From Patescibacteria group bacterium (GTDB lineage: Archaea; Nanobdellota; Nanobdellia; Pacearchaeales; GW2011-AR1): DNA of 45,929 nucleotides. The position numbers and the translations under genes were made by a program. The notes under the pieces are model-generated. The model had not been told where the DNA came from and did no database searches. It worked only from the letters and a program-made list of their open reading frames with translations. How positions within the stretch are numbered: position 1 is the first letter of the stretch; each line of letters opens with the position of its first letter. Shown one piece after another: positions 8,733 to 29,772 of the stretch. Location: the NCBI GenBank assembly GCA_051269935.1, contig JBNMFJ010000001.1, positions 1 through 45,929 on the forward strand. The letters run 5' to 3'.

Positions 8733-9929
8733 ATGCATGCTAATCAACATAAAATCCACTTTTATTTGAATAGAAATTTGGGGTTGTTATATACATCAAA
8801 TATAATAATAAACGCGGCGAAGGCATTCTTTAGTTTATTTATACCTATTTTCTTGTATAAGGAATTGCTATTTCCATTGTGGTTAGTTATTCTTATTTAT
8901 GGACTTCAGATTTTGTTATATGGATTAAGTATTCATTTTGGCTATAAACTAGCGATTCGTTTTGGAGTTAAAAGAGTATTTGCACTTGGTGTGTTATTCA
9001 ATGCGGTTGCTATAGTTTTTCTATTATTTGCAAAATCTAATCCACTGTATATTATACCTTTTTCTTTTTTTATTATTTTGAATTGGGCACTATATTATCC
9101 TGCTTCTGGTATTGATGAAGTAGTGTTTACTATTAAAAAAGCCCGTGCTAGGGAAGATAGTTTTATACGAGCAATAGGGCTTGGGATTAGTGCTATTATT
9201 CCATTTTTGTCAGGAGTTTTAATCTATTATTTTGGCTTTACTATTCCATTTATTATTGCCATTATATTATCTATTCTGAGTGCTATACCAATTTTATATT
9301 CAAAGGATAAGCATAATATCGGAGCGAATTATTCCCTAAAAAGTAGCCTTGCATTTTTTAGATCTTATAAGAATAAAAAAGAGTTTGTCGCGTATGTTGC
9401 AGATGGATTTAGGACGGGGAATTTGGAATTGTTTTGGCCGCTTTTGATTTTTATATTTATACCTAGTTATGTAGTACTTGGAGGAATTACCACAATTGTT
9501 ATTGCACTAAGCGTAATATTAACTATAGTGATAGGTAAGGTTATTGATAAGAATGGTCCAAATAAATATTTAAAAATTGGGACATATGGTGAATCGGTTA
9601 GTTGGGGATTAAAAGCATATCTTTGGGTGTTAACTGTAGTTACGAGTTTTCATATATTACTTATTAGTATAGTGAATAATATTACAAGTATTTTCTTTGG
9701 AATGAGTATGAATAAAATAGTTCTAGATCATGCAGATAATAAAGATACAATTGTGGAATTTCTTTTTTTACAAAAGTTTGCTCGTCAGATAGGATCTAGT
9801 ATTCCTTTTATTATTTTTGCATTCTTTGCATTTTATATGAAGGATCCTGAACAAATTATTATTATATCATTTATTCTTATGTCCATTGCAACTTTAGCTT
9901 TTCCATATGTATTGGGTAAGGATACATAA
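8733..9929 (+). CDS. multi-pass membrane protein, MFS-like transporter
   Basis: 398 aa, roughly 10-12 hydrophobic helices with a central hydrophilic loop. No diagnostic motif, so the family call is tentative. Confidence 0.5.
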   Translation: MHANQHKIHFYLNRNLGLLYTSNIIINAAKAFFSLFIPIFLYKELLFPLWLVILIYGLQILLYGLSIHFGYKLAIRFGVKRVFALGVLFNAVAIVFLLFAKSNPLYIIPFSFFIILNWALYYPASGIDEVVFTIKKARAREDSFIRAIGLGISAIIPFLSGVLIYYFGFTIPFIIAIILSILSAIPILYSKDKHNIGANYSLKSSLAFFRSYKNKKEFVAYVADGFRTGNLELFWPLLIFIFIPSYVVLGGITTIVIALSVILTIVIGKVIDKNGPNKYLKIGTYGESVSWGLKAYLWVLTVVTSFHILLISIVNNITSIFFGMSMNKIVLDHADNKDTIVEFLFLQKFARQIGSSIPFIIFAFFAFYMKDPEQIIIISFILMSIATLAFPYVLGKDT

Positions 9930-10457: not shown

Positions 10458-10712
10458 ATGGGAATAGTAAAAAAACTAACAACTGGATTTGTTGTGTATA
10501 CTGCGGCGGTGTTCGGAGCGGGATATGCTCTGCGTGGTTGCTCTTCGATTGATATTAACTCTAGGATTGATTCATTGCAGGAGAATTATATCCATGATGA
10601 TTATACTGATCCATTTACTTTGAAGACAAAGGCTTTGAGAGATTATGAAGCTTCTTCAGATAGGTTACGAGATAATTATGAAAAGTTTAAGGGAGGGCCT
10701 GTAGATGAGTGA
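10458..10712 (+). CDS. small N-terminally anchored protein (84 aa), lipobox-like LRGC; first gene of the operon
   Basis: Hydrophobic N-terminus FVVYTAAVFGAGYALRGCSS followed by a charged helical tail. Overlaps the next gene by 8 nt. Confidence 0.55.
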   Translation: MGIVKKLTTGFVVYTAAVFGAGYALRGCSSIDINSRIDSLQENYIHDDYTDPFTLKTKALRDYEASSDRLRDNYEKFKGGPVDE

Positions 10713-11802
10713 TGATTTATCTTATGAAGGGTCTATTGATTTAGATAAAAGGATTTCTGATTTGGGATATGAATTAGCTCCTAAAGATACATATGATGTT
10801 GGGGCTCGGAAATCTCCTGATTCTTTTTTGGATAGTTTGAGGCGTTCTAGAAGTGGTGATGGTATTGCACGGGGGCGTTCTGCTCGAAAGTATGGGATGA
10901 ATGATATTAGTAGTATGGTTGAGGAAATTAGCTATAATAATAGGACCATTGAACATGCTGTAAGGCGTGAAGTCCTTGGTACTAAAAATGATTGGAAAAG
11001 TAAGGTTTCTTATGCGTTAACTCATTTTGGGTCTAAATCTGATATGCCTGTTGAAAATATTTTTGAGGAACAAATTGGAAGAGTTCGTTCTGTTGATGAT
11101 ATGCTTTCTTCGTATAATGCTCAGTTAGATCAGCGAATTGATAGATTGCAGAAAAGACATCAAATTTTAGTTGGAGCAGCTGTTGAGAAATATGAGAATA
11201 ACTCTGTATTAAAAACGGGATTGCAAGAGAAGAAGTCTTTGCTTGACGATTTATCTCAAAGTGTTGATGCTTTGGGTAATGATGATTTGGCTATGGCTGA
11301 GAGAATGAAGTATATGGGAATTATGAGAGAATTACGTCGAGACATTTCTCATGGTGTTCATAATGTTAATCGGAATGGAAATTACTTGACTTTGTTACGA
11401 AGAGAGATGCCTATTATTGAGAGTTTAAGTCAGGTTTCTGATGCGTATTCTTTTAGTATGAAGGAAATTAGTGATAATACTGAAATTTTGACAACTCATT
11501 TACAGAGTGTTGTTCCTTTATACTTAGATGTATTACGAAGTGAAGCAGGAGTCGGAAGGCTTCAGGGTGAGGTTCAAAAATTGTTTGGGTATACTTCTAA
11601 TTTAAGTGGGGCAGTTCAGGCGGGTAAGCAACGAATTGTTACTGGTGGTGAAGAGCATGGGCTTGTTCATTTAGAATTTGATCGAATTGAACGGGATTTG
11701 GATGGAGCACTTACTGATGTTGAGGAAGCTACTTTTGGACAGTTAGATAGATTAGAGAATCAATTGTATACTAAGCATACTGATGAAAGGAGGTTGAAAT
11801 AA
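10705..11802 (+). CDS. hypothetical helical/coiled-coil protein (365 aa), operon member
   Basis: ORF track; GGAGGG 7 nt upstream inside the preceding gene. No motif recognised. Confidence 0.65.
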   Translation: MSDDLSYEGSIDLDKRISDLGYELAPKDTYDVGARKSPDSFLDSLRRSRSGDGIARGRSARKYGMNDISSMVEEISYNNRTIEHAVRREVLGTKNDWKSKVSYALTHFGSKSDMPVENIFEEQIGRVRSVDDMLSSYNAQLDQRIDRLQKRHQILVGAAVEKYENNSVLKTGLQEKKSLLDDLSQSVDALGNDDLAMAERMKYMGIMRELRRDISHGVHNVNRNGNYLTLLRREMPIIESLSQVSDAYSFSMKEISDNTEILTTHLQSVVPLYLDVLRSEAGVGRLQGEVQKLFGYTSNLSGAVQAGKQRIVTGGEEHGLVHLEFDRIERDLDGALTDVEEATFGQLDRLENQLYTKHTDERRLK

Positions 11803-11804
11803 AC

Positions 11805-12215
11805 ATGGATTATGATAAACCAATAGTGCGATTACGAAATAATGAGAATGCTAATGGAGGTTTAATGTATAATTTATCTCAGGATCTTGTAGATGGTTCC
11901 TTGAATAATTTAATTGAGTATTCATCGTGTCAAGAAAATTTTAGAGCTCTTGAACCAACAGAGAATTCTGTTGTTAATTATATTAATTCTTCACTTTCTC
12001 GAGGAGTCCCTTATAATATTAGAGCCTTTGAATCACCAGATCGTCTTTCTCCATCTATTAATTTAAGTGATCGTTTAAGTGTAGTTACTCAAAAATATAT
12101 GAGACCCAGTTCTATTCTAAATGATGCTGGAGAAGAAATTAGATTTAATGAGTTGGATTTAGTATTTACTTCCCAAGAAGTGGGTGGATTGTATTTACCA
12201 AATTATTTGTCTTAA
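11805..12215 (+). CDS. candidate ubiquitin-like modifier precursor (136 aa) ending ...LDLVFTSQEVGG-LYLPNYLS
   Basis: Small protein immediately upstream of the E2-like, E1-like and JAB genes. Di-glycine (12183-12188) is followed by an 8-residue tail, and the preceding hydrophobic-alternating strand resembles the ubiquitin ...LHLVLRLRGG end. The fold is not verifiable by eye. Confidence 0.45.
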   Translation: MDYDKPIVRLRNNENANGGLMYNLSQDLVDGSLNNLIEYSSCQENFRALEPTENSVVNYINSSLSRGVPYNIRAFESPDRLSPSINLSDRLSVVTQKYMRPSSILNDAGEEIRFNELDLVFTSQEVGGLYLPNYLS

Positions 12216-12223
12216 TGACATAG

Positions 12224-13669
12224 GTGTTATTTCGTTTTATTATGGCAGATCTTGCGACAAAGAGTAGAGTAGATTATTCGAGGCATACAGATTCTAATCC
12301 TAGAAGTGTTAAAAACATGGATCGTGAATATAAGAGAAATATTCAGATTTTAATGGAATCTCAATCTTTGTCGCAAGACTATTCTTTTGATGAGGTAGCT
12401 TTTACTCCATCATCCTGCGCGTTTGAATCTTTATTACAGAATAGATTTTGTCTTTTTGGACCTCAACATTCTTATGTTTTGTCAAAGGGAAAAAATGAAG
12501 GAGAGAAAATTCCAGTTCTCTATCATGGGACTAGATATTATTTTCAACCATCTCATTCTTATTCTGAGATTGAATCTACCTTAATGGATTCGATGTCTTC
12601 TGATATATCTATGTATAGGGGGAAATGTGTAGATACGTTAAAGAATAAATCTTCTAGTGTTAATGATTTAGTGAATACATATTCAGATAGACTATCTGGG
12701 AAATTTAGTGATATGGAGAATGTGTGTAATTCTTTGTTGTTAATGAATTATGATCAATTTGAAAATGGTATGAATGCTGAACAAAAAAAGATTGTTGCTT
12801 CAATTGCAAAACAATCTGACTTGATTAATTCTCTTTCTTTTGAGTCACAATTTTCTTCTCCTAATATATTGGAGAAATACATCTCATCACATTTACCTAA
12901 TTCTGATGACTTATTGTTGCGTATTGATAATGATTTTTATACCATTTTTTCAGGAAATGAGGTTATTGATTTAAATTCCCTTGCATTTGAGAAAACATTT
13001 ACATATGAAGATTTGCATTCTCATTATTTAAAGGAATTTTCCCGTCTTGTTCACTCAGAGGTCGCTGATTCTTTGAATGATGTTGTTGTAAAACTAGGGG
13101 ATATGGAAAAATCATTTAGCACACTCGATTCATTATCTCGTGAAGCTACGGTAGCGAATAAAAAGTTAGGAGCCTTTGGTTATGAATTACAAAGTGAATC
13201 ATCTGCTTGTATGTTTAAGGATATTGACTCTTATATTATTAAGAAAAAAGGGGATCATTATCTTTTTCCAAAGGCAAGAATTGGAACACAAATTAGAAAA
13301 AATAATGATGGGTCTGCCGCTATCGTTGAGACGCCTCCATATGTAATAGGTCATTATCCACATTCTTTTATGAGAAAAGAATCTTCTGGTAAAAGTTATT
13401 TTTGCTTTGGCGATATAAACTTTGCAAATATTTGTTCTCAAACATATCAACCTTTAGATAGTTCTCATTTTCCTGTATTACATAATGATGCAGTTCTTTC
13501 GATTGGAACGCTAGAAAATGTTTTGAAGTTTGGGTTTCGCGCGGATTATCATCCTCATCGATATCTTAATCCACAAAATTTTGCTACCAATCATATTTCA
13601 CTATCTCGAGTGAATGAATTGTCAACTAAGGGAATTGAAATTTGTGATAATGATAGGAGGGATACATAA
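12224..13669 (+). CDS. large protein (481 aa) with candidate UBC/E2-like C-terminal domain
   Basis: C-terminal segment ETPPYVIGHYPHSFMRKESSGKSYFCFGDINF resembles the UBC core PP-x-V...HPN...G-x-x-C. Candidate catalytic Cys is TGC at 13403-13405. GTG start at 12224, alternative ATG at 12242. N-terminal ~350 aa unknown. Confidence 0.5.
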   Translation: MLFRFIMADLATKSRVDYSRHTDSNPRSVKNMDREYKRNIQILMESQSLSQDYSFDEVAFTPSSCAFESLLQNRFCLFGPQHSYVLSKGKNEGEKIPVLYHGTRYYFQPSHSYSEIESTLMDSMSSDISMYRGKCVDTLKNKSSSVNDLVNTYSDRLSGKFSDMENVCNSLLLMNYDQFENGMNAEQKKIVASIAKQSDLINSLSFESQFSSPNILEKYISSHLPNSDDLLLRIDNDFYTIFSGNEVIDLNSLAFEKTFTYEDLHSHYLKEFSRLVHSEVADSLNDVVVKLGDMEKSFSTLDSLSREATVANKKLGAFGYELQSESSACMFKDIDSYIIKKKGDHYLFPKARIGTQIRKNNDGSAAIVETPPYVIGHYPHSFMRKESSGKSYFCFGDINFANICSQTYQPLDSSHFPVLHNDAVLSIGTLENVLKFGFRADYHPHRYLNPQNFATNHISLSRVNELSTKGIEICDNDRRDT

Positions 13670-15030: not shown

Positions 15031-16727
15031 TGGGATTTTTTAATTTTTTTACGGATAAACAGGAATCAGTTTCTACTCCTAATTTTAGTTATTCTTCATC
15101 TTATTTAACTGAGGATGCGCGTAATTTTACTTTTATGGGGACTCGTCCTTATAGTTTGGAAGAGTGTTTACGTCAAAGAGAGACTGTTTTTCCTGATCAT
15201 GTAGTGAGAAAAATTGCTGCTGAGTTTTCTATGACTGATAGAATGCTTTATTTTGAGGGAAAAAATCATGTAATAGATTCTAAAAAATCTCGACATGCAG
15301 TTGTTACTTCAGGAATTAATTCGATATTGGATTCAGATGATAGATACCAGGAATCTGAACGAGAAGCTGATCGTGTCTATAAGTCTAGGATTACATCTTT
15401 ATTACATTCTAGCCATAAGGCTGGTGTTGAAGACTATATATCTAAAAATGTAGAAGCGGTACCTCAGTTACATTCCATTAAGATCACTCAAGAAGCAATG
15501 GATAAGGCGAATTTGATTGCCAAGAGGATGGTTAATGCATCGAAGACTCCTGATGAAATTTATTTTCATATGCTTAGTGGAAAAGATGATACCGATTTTG
15601 TGATTAGAGATATTTATATTCCTCGTCAGGCTGTAACACCATCATTGTGTTCTACTGACCATCAATATTATGGTATGGATGATTTTGAAATAGAGAAGTC
15701 AGGTTATAAAAATATTGCATGGGGACATTCTCATGGACATCATGATGTCTTTTTTTCAGGAACTGATCATACTAATATTAATGCTAATAATGATTTGTAT
15801 CCATCATTTACATTACCTTTTGATTCGTATTCGGGTAAAAATATTAATGTTCATGCTATGCCTTGTTTGGTTTTTAATGCTCTGAATGCCTCTCCTGCTA
15901 AAAGAATTGGAGTTGCCTATACATCTTTATTTGGAGATCTATTTGAACGATATGATAATAAAACTCCCAATCTTGATATTATTTCTGAGTCTAATGGTAT
16001 TGATATGACTATTGATTCTATAGATAAAATGATTTATAATAGAGTTACTACACCTCGTGGTTTTAAGAATAGTTTTGAGGAAAATATGTTTGAGAAGTAT
16101 GGCGAGATAATCCGAGGAGATTCTGGTGCTTATTCTGAAAAAGTTCGAATACAAAGGGAAAATGATGTAGAATACAAGGCCAATCTTTCTCGATTGTTTG
16201 GACAGAAAGTTGTGAATCGTGTAGTACCTCTATCTGAATCGGAAACTCCTGCAGAAGATATAACTCCTGCTCCAACTCAGAATGAATTTGGTGTTGATAC
16301 TTTTTTCTCTTCTAATTATATAGTCAATAATTCTGGGTATCGACATTCAGTAGATTCTAACGGGAATATTGATCTTTCTGATGTTGATATGGGATCTGAT
16401 AAGGTTCAAGTGCGTGGATATTCATATGATAATTTAGAAACCTTTTCGGTTGATACGAATAATGATCCTTATATGCAAAATCGATTTATGGGTTATGATG
16501 CTCCGTTTATTCATGATATAGATTTTGAAAATATGGCTACTGAGGGGACTTCTGAAACAAATGCTATTGATGATTACTTTGTCTCGCGTTCTGAATATAA
16601 TGCTTTACAGGATAGGCATGATGTATTGCGGGAAGAGGTTGATGGGTTAGGTGATCGATTGGGCTCTTTGAAAAAGAGTGTGAAATATCTTGGAGGGTTG
16701 TATAATAAATGGAGAGACAAAGATTAG
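15030..16727 (+). CDS. JAB/MPN+ (JAMM) metallopeptidase domain protein with long N- and C-terminal extensions (565 aa)
   Basis: Exact JAMM signature AWGHSHGHHDVFFSGTD, i.e. H-S-H-x7-S-x-x-D (15726-15767), with an upstream Glu candidate in PDEIYFHML. TAATG overlap with the E1 gene. Confidence 0.85.
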   Translation: MGFFNFFTDKQESVSTPNFSYSSSYLTEDARNFTFMGTRPYSLEECLRQRETVFPDHVVRKIAAEFSMTDRMLYFEGKNHVIDSKKSRHAVVTSGINSILDSDDRYQESEREADRVYKSRITSLLHSSHKAGVEDYISKNVEAVPQLHSIKITQEAMDKANLIAKRMVNASKTPDEIYFHMLSGKDDTDFVIRDIYIPRQAVTPSLCSTDHQYYGMDDFEIEKSGYKNIAWGHSHGHHDVFFSGTDHTNINANNDLYPSFTLPFDSYSGKNINVHAMPCLVFNALNASPAKRIGVAYTSLFGDLFERYDNKTPNLDIISESNGIDMTIDSIDKMIYNRVTTPRGFKNSFEENMFEKYGEIIRGDSGAYSEKVRIQRENDVEYKANLSRLFGQKVVNRVVPLSESETPAEDITPAPTQNEFGVDTFFSSNYIVNNSGYRHSVDSNGNIDLSDVDMGSDKVQVRGYSYDNLETFSVDTNNDPYMQNRFMGYDAPFIHDIDFENMATEGTSETNAIDDYFVSRSEYNALQDRHDVLREEVDGLGDRLGSLKKSVKYLGGLYNKWRDKD

Positions 16728-18446: not shown

Positions 18447-18707
18447 TTAATATTTAGGGTTCTTGGAAGCTTTGAAAGTGAATGCCTTTCGTGCAGATAT
18501 TCTAATCTTAGCACCAGTTGCAGGGTTTACACCATTTCGTGCCTTTTTCTTTACTTCTTTAAAAGTTCCGAATCCGACTAATTGTACGGGTGCTTTCTTA
18601 GCGTTTTTATATACAGTCTTTAAAACTGATTCTAAAACTTCACCAGCTTTTGCCTTAGTTAGGCCTGTGTCTTTTACGACAGCTTCGATTAATTGAGCTT
18701 TATTCAT
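18447..18707 (-). CDS. HU/IHF-family (bacterial-type) DNA-binding protein
   Basis: MNKAQLIEAVV...GFGTFKEVKKKARNGVNPATGAKIRISARKAFTFKAS. Typical HU length (86 aa), with the arm motif R-x-G-x-NP-x-TG. Confidence 0.9.
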   Translation of the reverse strand: MNKAQLIEAVVKDTGLTKAKAGEVLESVLKTVYKNAKKAPVQLVGFGTFKEVKKKARNGVNPATGAKIRISARKAFTFKASKNPKY

Positions 18708-27951: not shown

Positions 27952-29772
27952 ATGAAAAAAACAATACTAACCTTAGTAATCCTTGCAGGAATAATCCTCG
28001 CAGCGACAAATACCTCCGCTTTAGTCTGGAGAACCAACGGGTTAGATATGATGAATTTAAGTGATAGTGGAAATCTAACACTACTCATAGGAAATGTAAC
28101 GGCACCATTTTACTATGGAAGTGGCAAATACTTAACAAATATTACAGCAGATGTAATCGCAAACAATACAAGAATCGCACATAATGTTACAATCGGAGAA
28201 TGGTTAACTGTTGATGGAAATTTGAATGTTACAGGAACTTCTTATCTTGGAGATACAACAATCACCTCAGATAATATTACAACTAATAATATTATTCCTA
28301 AGGATGGTGGAAATGTAACTATTGATGGCAATTTGACTCTTTCAGACAAAATAACATTTGCTTTGGGAGGGGTTATAGATAATCTTGTTGCTGGGTGGAT
28401 TACTATTACAGGAAATTTGCAAGTAGATGGTGATGTTAATGTTACTGGAAGCTTGAATGTGTCTGAAAATATAACTGCAAGTTCTGTAACTGTTCATGGA
28501 AATTTGAATGTTACAGGAACTTCTTATCTTGGAGATACAACAATCACCTCAGACAATATTACAACTAATAATATTATTCCTAAAGATGGTGAAAATGTGA
28601 CTATTGATGGTAATTTGACTCTTTCAGAAAAAATAACTTTTTCTTTGGGAGAAATTATAGATAATATTGTTGATGGTTGGATTAGAATTACAGGAAGTTT
28701 ACAAGTAGATGGTGATGTTAATGTTACTGGAAGCTTGAATGTGTCAGAAAATATAACAACAGAGTATTATTTTGGTGATGGCTCACAATTAACTGGAATG
28801 GAAACAGTATTTTCTATTACTAATTCAACAACTATTTCAACAACTTCAACGACCGATGCATTAACAGGAATGACTTTAACTCCTGGAGCAGGAAATTATT
28901 CTGTTTTATTTAATTCACAATATGAGATAGAAGCCGGAAATATAACTCAATTAGGAGCTCCGGATTTAACTATTCTATATAACGAACTAATGGCTGTCCC
29001 TGCAACCATAACCAACCACTCGGTTACTTTTGGGTCAGAAACGCTTACACCAGGTGTTTATACTGTTACTGGGGCAAGTAATATAATTGGGACTCTTACT
29101 CTTGATGCACAGAATGATCCTAATGCTATTTTTATTTTTAGATTTGGAGCGGCACTTTCTTCAACTGCTGGTGCGACTATAACTTTAATTAATGGATCAT
29201 CAGCTTCAAACATATTTTTTATAGCAGACGCAGCCATGCCTTTTGGGGCAGGTACTACATTAAAGGGAACTTTTATTTCAAATAATGGAGCTCCAACTTT
29301 GGGTGCAGGGTGTAATCTAGAGGGTAGACTAATGGCCAGAAACGGCATTACATCAACTGACAGCTCAACTGTACAGGCTTCACCTATTAGTTCTTCTTTC
29401 AATTCAGGAGTATTACAGTCGTTTGCAATATTTAATTCTGTGGGTAATCTAGTGAACACAGGTGTATCAATTATTACTGGAGACGTAGGAACTAATTCAG
29501 GGACCATCACAGGGTTCACAACAGGGATGGTAAGTGGTAATATATATTTACCAGGTTCTGTTTCTGATGCTTTAGTTACATTTAGCATTTATCAAAATGG
29601 AGTTTTGATTAACAACTCGATCAGAGAACGAACATTTCAGGTGAATACAGTGGATGTGACACTACAATCAATAGCTACGGTGACAGAAGGACAAACTATT
29701 GATGTTAGGTATAAAATAGATACTGGAGAAGTGGTTTTAGAGAATAGAATTTTAACATTAATCAAAAATTAA
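27952..29772 (+). CDS. secreted, heavily sequon-decorated surface protein with duplicated 94-aa module and C-terminal ice-binding-like (DUF3494) beta-solenoid region
   Basis: Signal peptide MKKTILTLVILAGIILAATNTSA and about 25 N-x-S/T sequons. LTPGVYTVTGASNIIGTLTLDAQNDPNAIFIFRFGAALSSTAGATITLINGSSASNIFF...LEGRLMARNG matches DUF3494. Confidence 0.8.
   Translation: MKKTILTLVILAGIILAATNTSALVWRTNGLDMMNLSDSGNLTLLIGNVTAPFYYGSGKYLTNITADVIANNTRIAHNVTIGEWLTVDGNLNVTGTSYLGDTTITSDNITTNNIIPKDGGNVTIDGNLTLSDKITFALGGVIDNLVAGWITITGNLQVDGDVNVTGSLNVSENITASSVTVHGNLNVTGTSYLGDTTITSDNITTNNIIPKDGENVTIDGNLTLSEKITFSLGEIIDNIVDGWIRITGSLQVDGDVNVTGSLNVSENITTEYYFGDGSQLTGMETVFSITNSTTISTTSTTDALTGMTLTPGAGNYSVLFNSQYEIEAGNITQLGAPDLTILYNELMAVPATITNHSVTFGSETLTPGVYTVTGASNIIGTLTLDAQNDPNAIFIFRFGAALSSTAGATITLINGSSASNIFFIADAAMPFGAGTTLKGTFISNNGAPTLGAGCNLEGRLMARNGITSTDSSTVQASPISSSFNSGVLQSFAIFNSVGNLVNTGVSIITGDVGTNSGTITGFTTGMVSGNIYLPGSVSDALVTFSIYQNGVLINNSIRERTFQVNTVDVTLQSIATVTEGQTIDVRYKIDTGEVVLENRILTLIKN
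28216..28760 (+). repeat. intragenic tandem duplication, period 282 bp (94 aa), about 1.9 copies
   Basis: GGAAATTTGAATGTTACAGGAACTTCTTATCTTGGAGATACAACAATCACCTCAGA... recurs at 28216 and 28498. Confidence 0.9.

Follow-up and report, generated by a model that had tools for sequence, protein, structure and literature searches.

A candidate ubiquitin-like conjugation cassette with a sequence-orphan modifier in a small-genome, DPANN-like archaeon

The locus and its host

We analyzed a stretch of 45,929 nt of archaeal DNA (referred to as the window), in which four adjacent genes of the forward strand encode a putative modifier precursor, an E2-like protein, an E1 and a JAMM metallopeptidase (Table 1). 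A preliminary description of the window had reported a 136-aa ORF with a Gly-Gly pair and an eight-residue tail at this site and had placed it directly upstream of E2-like, E1 and JAB genes. Both statements were confirmed: length, Gly-Gly and tail agree with the sequence, the E1 gene matches ThiF (1.5e-36), the JAB gene carries HSHx7SxxD and the E2-like gene has its label from a motif only. The product of the ORF ends in ...LDLVFTSQEVGG followed by LYLPNYLS; its C-terminal sequence reads ...NELDLVFTSQEVGGLYLPNYLS, with ...NELDLVFTSQEVGG standing before the tail, and the ORF is closed by a TAA at 12213–12215. In the frame of the downstream gene a TAG at 12221–12223 blocks any start earlier than the GTG at 12224. 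The Gly-Gly codons lie 35 nt from this GTG and 53 nt from the first ATG at 12242, and because the nearest possible start is 35 nt away they are not the Shine–Dalgarno site of the next gene, in agreement with the preliminary description. The operon has two further C-terminal Gly-Gly pairs, one in the 84-aa protein and one in the JAMM protein. They had been attributed to ribosome-binding sites, and we came to the same result, as their codons read GGAGGG and are located 9 and 12 nt, respectively, before the next ATG.

Table 1. Genes and sequence features of the cassette and its immediate neighbours in the window
Feature	Position	Strand	Remarks
Two co-oriented upstream genes, 84-aa (hydrophobic N-terminus) and 365-aa helical protein	10458..11802	+	Lineage-specific accessories
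Putative modifier precursor, 136 aa	11805..12215	+	ORF; member of a new 'Ubl-like' family, 111–171 aa
Strand-like h-x-h-x-h segment (LDLVF) and 5-residue linker before Gly-Gly	12160..12182	+	
Gly127-Gly128, codons GGT GGA	12183..12188	+	Mature C-terminus and site of adenylation by the E1, both predicted
Tail LYLPNYLS, 8 codons	12189..12212	+	Predicted to be removed; tails variable in homologues
E2-like protein, 475 aa from ATG 12242	12242..13669	+	Alternative start GTG 12224; iterated HMM family, motif
E1, 453 aa	13669..15030	+	Degenerate N-terminal and active C-terminal ThiF adenylation domains; Pfam ThiF 1.5e-36
JAMM/MPN+ metallopeptidase, 565 aa	15030..16727	+	E176 at 15555–15557; H233-S-H235...S243..D246 at 15726–15767
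Downstream gene, 465 aa	16709..18106	+	19-nt overlap with JAMM gene; 0 matches in the contexts

The host assembly comprises 656 kb (0.66 Mb) at 77% completeness. It contains a gene for a two-repeat TBP, sigma-70 is absent, and no rRNA was found in it. Because of the TBP, the missing sigma-70 and the small genome the host is, judged by gene content, an archaeon and DPANN-like in genome size. Bacterial-looking HU, UvrA/UvrC and MutL genes are encoded in the window, and a CPR bacterium was considered as host on their account; this candidate is ruled out by the presence of TBP and the absence of sigma-70. The bacterial-type HU protein (18447–18707, minus strand; Bac_DNA_binding, 1.7e-23) is thus found in a genome with TBP and without sigma-70. 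A compositionally foreign origin of the cassette was rejected as well, since the GC content is uniform (0.32–0.35) across the whole window. The cassette E1 is the sole ThiF-family gene of the assembly, and a search of the same assembly for ThiS/MoaD genes gave no match above cut-off.

The putative modifier family and its C-terminus

We searched for relatives of the modifier in several collections. A phmmer scan of 1.84 billion representative proteins yielded one true homologue, P0003 (134 aa, 33% identity, E 4e-5), with the C-terminus ...IDLELEVNQVGG-YY, and two further matches that are low-complexity false hits. The contig of P0003 (L003) encodes a tandem paralogue of the modifier that ends in ...KGG-YQIV; this contig stops 200 nt past the modifier gene, so that downstream enzymes would lie beyond its end. 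When the modifier and the E2-like protein served as queries in a word-index search of 5.8 billion proteins, only the proteins of the window itself came back, and genome, metagenome and viral contigs searched with P0003 or small alignments contained no related loci (this collection apparently lacks the G096 and G254 genomes named below). With a profile of three sequences (window, P0003 and its paralogue) we found matches in 22 of 400 genomes of the phylum, all of them from the same class, and none in the 27 genomes of the host's own family within this sample. When a profile of 24 sequences was applied to 400 genomes of the class, nine more genomes were found, including one from the host's own family, which had 76 genomes in this class-level sample. 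In 60 close relatives a search for the E2-like protein gave no match. As the modifier occurs in few genomes (22, then nine more), the cassette is sporadic and present in about 4–5% of the genomes searched. Altogether the profile searches of about 770 related genomes and one metagenome contig gave 32 homologues; with the window protein the family comprises 33 proteins from 30 sources. By sequence, the modifier represents a protein family not catalogued before, the members of which are spread over small-genome archaea of a single class.

The conservation in this family covers the entire length of about 130 residues. It had been proposed that the 136-aa protein could hold a second beta-grasp or an N-terminal extension; our data support neither the former nor an extension that is separable, since the N- and C-terminal halves show no profile similarity to each other and the conservation spans the full length; an internal repeat was rejected on the same comparison of the halves. 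The modifier is duplicated in tandem in two cases (L003 9556–9999 and 10001–10405; L035 of genome G429, 8918–9349 and 9503–9901), and G618 has a second modifier locus (contigs C28 and C2). One copy of a duplicate pair often has a degenerate end, as in G429b (...QKYVVG*) and G618b (...LICG*).

For the C-terminus we aligned the 33 proteins with MAFFT L-INS-i and observed Gly in the final Gly column in 29 of 33 sequences, the preceding column holding G in 23 and V in 6. In a register set by eye the terminal Gly is found in all 33, preceded by G in 22, by V in 6 and by A, S, P, L and C once each. Alignment of homologues had been named beforehand as a check of the precursor proposal; it was run, Gly or Gly-Gly is kept (29–33 of 33), the tail is unconserved, and the contrary outcome of a non-conserved Gly-Gly did not occur. 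The family thus carries a C-terminal Gly, usually Gly-Gly, that is either free or followed by a short tail. The tails comprise 0–15 residues of unrelated sequence, examples being K (in G061), NVD, LKKD, LKWQAYKV, YTLNIVDYLK, IQGKDMYRQRD and TYLDNCIQENDQYIA; the tail of G199, LYNLLRYS, recalls the LYLPNYLS of the window. Five members terminate at the conserved Gly, two of them in Gly-Gly (G357, ...DIAGG*; G267, ...FGAGG*). In most members the distance from the h-x-h-x-h segment to the Gly is nearly constant and usually five residues, as in IDLEL-EVNQV-GG, LELVL-LNDIA-GG and INLVM-DYTPA-GG. One weak family match, G572, is without a C-terminal Gly.

In regard to the fold of the modifier, comparisons with known proteins gave no relatives. 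The 24 family members had no match in Pfam, NCBIfam or the PDB sequences, the modifier had none in PADLOC, the family profile found nothing meaningful among PDB sequences, and hhalign of the modifier profile with ubiquitin returned a probability of 0.1%. AF2 models of the modifier reached a mean pLDDT of 31.7 from the single sequence and 40.0 from an alignment of three sequences (window, P0003 and its paralogue), and Foldseek with the low-confidence model against the PDB gave a best E-value of 0.8, nothing meaningful. The secondary structure in this low-confidence model runs strand, strand, helices, strand, helix, strand, strand, an order that would be compatible with a beta-grasp carrying extra helices.

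The cassette enzymes and their genomic context

The E2-like proteins form a family of about 310–500 aa. The 475-aa window member has no match in Pfam, NCBIfam, PADLOC or the PDB sequences, and we call the family E2-like on the basis of one short motif and the gene position. The canonical UBC motif is HPN-x7-C with an Ile before the Cys, the catalytic Cys of the UBC fold standing about 8–10 residues behind an HPN-like motif. The motif of the present family is Y-x-H-P-F-V-x(3-8)-I-C with typically 10 positions from His to Cys, and its part H-P-F-V-x(3-8)-I-C has an order and spacing that we take to be those of the canonical motif. Y340, Y372, H374, F376 and C388 are shared without exception by the 15 sequences compared; in the window His374 is encoded at 13361–13363 and Cys388 at 13403–13405.

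The E1 scores 126 bits against Pfam ThiF (cut-off 28.1), with 33.9 and 94.8 bits for its two halves, and carries the GxGxxG motif and the ATP-Mg site of the ThiF/E1 family; by its domain features it is an inactive-plus-active tandem of adenylation domains. All 18 sequences compared have GxGxxG, D268, D270, N276, R279, Q280, K291 and D335, and 17 of them have C392. The best matches among PDB sequences are the SUMO E1 UBA2 (1e-9) and the NEDD8 E1 (UBA3), ahead of PaaA and MccB, and the best NCBIfam scores belong to ThiF and MoeB models, all of them far below cut-offs.

The JAMM protein has the zinc-site motif E-x(n)-H-x-H-x7-S-x2-D, and all 17 sequences compared share E176, H233, H235, S243 and D246, in a family that ranges from 224 to 1033 aa. 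Its match to Pfam Prok-JAB (E 0.0095) is below cut-off, and the best PDB match, a weak one, is AMSH/STAMBP. The C-terminus of the window protein (16688–16727) reads ...YLGGLYNKWRDKD and repeats the GGLY of the predicted cleavage site of the modifier, between VGG and LYLPNYLS. The Gly-Gly in it is explained as a ribosome-binding site because of its codons and their distance to the next ATG (see above); that the GGLY acts as a pseudo-substrate is conceivable.

To evaluate the gene context we scanned 20 regions of about 10–18 kb each around modifier homologues with iterated HMMs. In 17 of the 20 contexts the E2-like, E1 and JAMM genes have the modifier close by, mostly just upstream of them; counted by family, 16 contexts contain the E2-like protein, 17 the E1 and 13–14 the JAMM protein. 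The usual gene order is modifier, E2-like, E1, JAMM (UBL-E2L-E1-JAB) or a close variant, and in the 17 contexts with a ThiF E1 this gene lies on the same strand within a few kb of the modifier. No E1 was found within 18 kb in three contexts (G096, G254 and G267): in G096 two E2-like paralogues of 42% identity flank the modifier (L024 6763–8049 and 8616–9866), with no E1 or JAMM gene in the 18 kb fetched, and in G254 and G267 no cassette enzymes are found near the modifier. In G108 two JAMM genes flank the E1 (L026 10257–11303 and 12711–13877). Modifier, E2-like, E1 and JAMM are the only gene families common to the loci.

The 84-aa and 365-aa proteins encoded upstream of the modifier have no relatives in the other 20 contexts, and the sole homologue of the 365-aa protein lies on the P0003 contig (L003 8171–9556, E 8.9e-15), where the gene before it encodes a 70-aa protein whose N-terminus is likewise hydrophobic and similar. 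The hydrophobic N-termini of the two small proteins (window 10458–10712 and L003 7972–8184) end in G-C (LRGC and AGGC, respectively) and are lipobox-like. There are thus hints, from sequence features, that the 84-aa-type proteins and the helical 365/461-aa proteins may form a membrane-associated accessory pair. Two Ser/Thr protein-kinase genes are located upstream of the modifier genes on L003 (1320–2666 and 6000–7142). Beside the cassette of three genomes we observed transglutaminase-like proteins (L024 6104–6778; L040 10536–11330; L041 241–1356 and 2294–3196) with a Cys-His-Asp core of the form ...EGVCGEMAYLY...HAC...DPAY..., which could be an extra peptidase or ligase of the system.

Proposed function, alternative readings and known systems

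Since the C-proximal Gly is conserved, the tail is variable and the gene lies upstream of those for E2-like, E1 and JAMM proteins, we consider it likely that the 136-aa protein is the precursor of a conjugated modifier, serving as E1 substrate of a four-gene cassette. For modifier, E2-like, E1 and JAMM the anatomy, the linkage and the intact catalytic motifs are established, and the conjugation steps that we infer would be as follows. The modifier would be made as a precursor, and the JAMM metallopeptidase would cut after Gly128 and release LYLPNYLS; this removal of the tail by the co-encoded enzyme is proposed by analogy with Caldiarchaeum Ub and BilA. In the Caldiarchaeum system CsRpn11 trims nine residues after Gly-Gly from the Ub precursor (PMC6043591), and in the bacterial system BilC pre-processes BilA, the homologues of which have up to nine residues past the conserved Gly (10.1101/2023.09.26.559546). 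The tandem-domain E1 would then adenylate the exposed Gly carboxylate, and a thioester would form on a cysteine, probably Cys392 of the E1, and then on Cys388 of the E2-like protein. From there the modifier would be transferred to an amine of a target, and the same JAMM enzyme could also undo the linkage. The preliminary description had called the protein a ubiquitin-like precursor; of this, the conserved C-proximal Gly, the variable tail and the linkage to the enzymes (17 of 20 contexts) stood up, and similarity to a beta-grasp was not found.

The protein might instead be an accessory subunit, an adaptor or a target of the E1, E2-like and JAMM proteins that is not itself conjugated, its Gly-Gly being a Shine–Dalgarno by-product of the coupled gene. 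This is suggested by the two other genes of the window operon that end in an in-frame GGAGGG serving as ribosome-binding site, and by about 15 of 27 loci in which the end of the Gly-Gly codons and the next start are roughly −8 to 11 nt apart, often as GGAGG or GGTGG (GGAGGN or GGTGGN); in those loci the codons may double as ribosome-binding site. It also fits that a C-proximal Gly-Gly is about 2.5 times commoner in coupled genes than in others (counted over the last 12 residues, 4.7% of 317 ORFs from the neighbourhood that are not family members, and 12% where translation is coupled, n = 98). However, 22 of the 33 family members (67%) have Gly-Gly within the last 17 residues, tails included, compared to the 12% in coupled genes, and for the window and 12 further loci 19–187 nt separate the Gly codons from the next start. 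Moreover, the conserved site is read as Gly in every case, at a fixed distance from the strand-like segment, the six 'VG' members have the codons GTNGGN, which do not resemble a Shine–Dalgarno sequence, and no alternative conserved gene would fit as the E1 substrate. Given the frequency of 67% versus 12%, the constant Gly frame, the VG codons and the distant loci, a constraint at the protein level is the better explanation for the Gly, and we regard the accessory reading as unlikely.

A C-terminal Gly-Gly together with a ThiF-family E1 is also the classical sulfur-carrier pair, and the best NCBIfam scores of the E1 (ThiF and MoeB, far below cut-offs) point in the same direction. Accordingly the protein could be a carrier of the ThiS/MoaD/Urm1 type, on which the E1 would form a C-terminal thiocarboxylate for cofactor or tRNA thiolation. 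Yet no modifier member matches ThiS/MoaD (PF02597-type), the conserved neighbours include no rhodanese, thiamine, molybdopterin or tRNA-thiolation genes, and an E2-like protein with invariant Cys (16 of 20 contexts) and a JAMM protein (13–14 of 20) are co-encoded. The sporadic distribution, with about 4–5% of genomes and 1 of 76 in the host's own family, is also unlike that of a housekeeping pathway, and altogether we assign very little probability to a sulfur carrier. Matches of the E1 to PaaA (6.7e-8) and MccB (1.7e-5) among the PDB sequences could further point to a ribosomal natural product, with the protein as its precursor and an adenylating enzyme of the MccB/PaaA kind modifying the C-terminus. 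We hold this to be extremely improbable: eukaryotic E1s outscore PaaA and MccB, the modifier is conserved over all of its about 130 residues, unlike leader-plus-core peptides, and the conserved neighbours comprise neither exporter nor immunity genes.

Outside eukaryotes, complete cascades of Ubl, E2, E1 and deubiquitinase have been described for a few families of bacterial operons (Bil, Bub and type II CBASS), for Caldiarchaeum and for Asgard archaea. We compared the cassette, read as encoding a conjugated modifier, with these systems. The Bil system (BilA Ubl, BilB E2, BilC JAMM, BilD E1) likewise is a compact, sporadic operon of the same four component types (10.1101/2023.09.26.559546; PMC11601603; PMC11354881). 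Like the cassette, it has an E1 whose N-terminal adenylation domain is inactive and whose C-terminal one is active; its Ubl carries a conserved Gly and up to nine residues behind it that the JAMM enzyme removes, as is predicted for the tail in the cassette. We found the four-gene Bil-type set of putative Ubl, E2, JAMM and tandem-domain E1 in the cassette, with the E2 recognized from motif and position only. In contrast to Bil the host is archaeal and the gene order is Ubl-E2-E1-JAB, the modifier of about 130 aa has no recognizable beta-grasp, and the E2-like and JAMM proteins carry large extra regions. The catalytic motif of BilB is Cys...Glu..His....His (CEHH), with the Cys first (PMC11354881), whereas in the H-P-F-V-x-I-C of the cassette E2-like protein the His precedes the Cys, so that it lacks the BilB motif. 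In PADLOC the Bil and ISG15-like profile models gave no match for modifier, E2-like and JAMM proteins, and the E1 matched only partially, to Cap2. The Pfam and NCBIfam models of Ubl, E2 or JAB proteins likewise gave none, apart from the weak Prok-JAB score below cut-off.

The operon of Caldiarchaeum subterraneum and Asgard archaea (Ub, E1, E2, a small RING E3 and Rpn11) likewise combines an archaeal modifier with E1, E2 and JAMM (PMC6043591; PMC5654768), and its nine-residue Ub tail after Gly-Gly is removed by the JAMM enzyme of the operon (PMC6043591). Its Ub and E2 can be recognized as ubiquitin and UBC, whereas the cassette modifier and E2-like protein cannot; furthermore, no RING protein is found among the conserved cassette neighbours, and the present host is small-genome and DPANN-like. 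The order of His before Cys in the E2-like motif resembles canonical UBC, and the best solved relatives of the E1 are the eukaryotic UBA2 and UBA3. SAMP/UbaA/HvJAMM1 is also archaeal and comprises a C-terminal Gly-Gly modifier, activation by a ThiF-type E1 and removal by a JAMM enzyme (PMC4443979). SAMPylation proceeds without E2, and its modifiers are of the ThiS/MoaD family, whereas the cassette has an E2-like protein and a modifier without ThiS/MoaD match. In type II CBASS, Cap2/Cap3 provide E1, E2 and JAMM activities that act on the C-terminus of a non-beta-grasp protein, and the window E1 matches the PADLOC Cap2 'E1-E2' models (4e-14) over the nucleotide-binding region. The cassette differs in that it has no CD-NTase or effector, E1 and E2-like protein are separate genes and the substrate would be small and dedicated.

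From these comparisons the cassette appears as a sequence-orphan variant of the Ubl-E2-E1-JAMM conjugation system, which by sequence belongs neither to the Bil nor to the Caldiarchaeum Ub operons. A more far-reaching reading is that the modifier is a new non-beta-grasp fold recruited as E1/E2 substrate, comparable to the CD-NTase of type II CBASS, and the cassette a third independent archaeal ubiquitination-like lineage, confined to DPANN-type archaea. It builds on a non-beta-grasp modifier, the E2-like motif with His before Cys and the fact that the solved structures nearest to the E1 are eukaryotic; we offer it tentatively, as rather doubtful. A literature search of limited scope found no description of such an operon in DPANN archaea. 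Non-eukaryotic cascades are central to the debate on the origin of ubiquitination, and the cassette, as a putative conjugation system, would add a lineage in small-genome, DPANN-like archaea with a modifier and an E2-like protein that are invisible to current profile libraries. It carries what appear to be the hallmarks of a working cascade, namely a conserved C-proximal Gly, a variable tail, invariant His and Cys, an E1 of tandem layout and a JAMM site that is intact. Its sporadic distribution points to an accessory role of the cassette, e.g. in defence or stress response, and almost no biology of this sort is known for the host organisms.

Elsewhere in the window we observed a gene for a 606-aa protein (27952–29772, plus strand). 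It has an ice-binding-like domain (PF11999, 2.1e-27), perhaps a sign that the habitat is cold.
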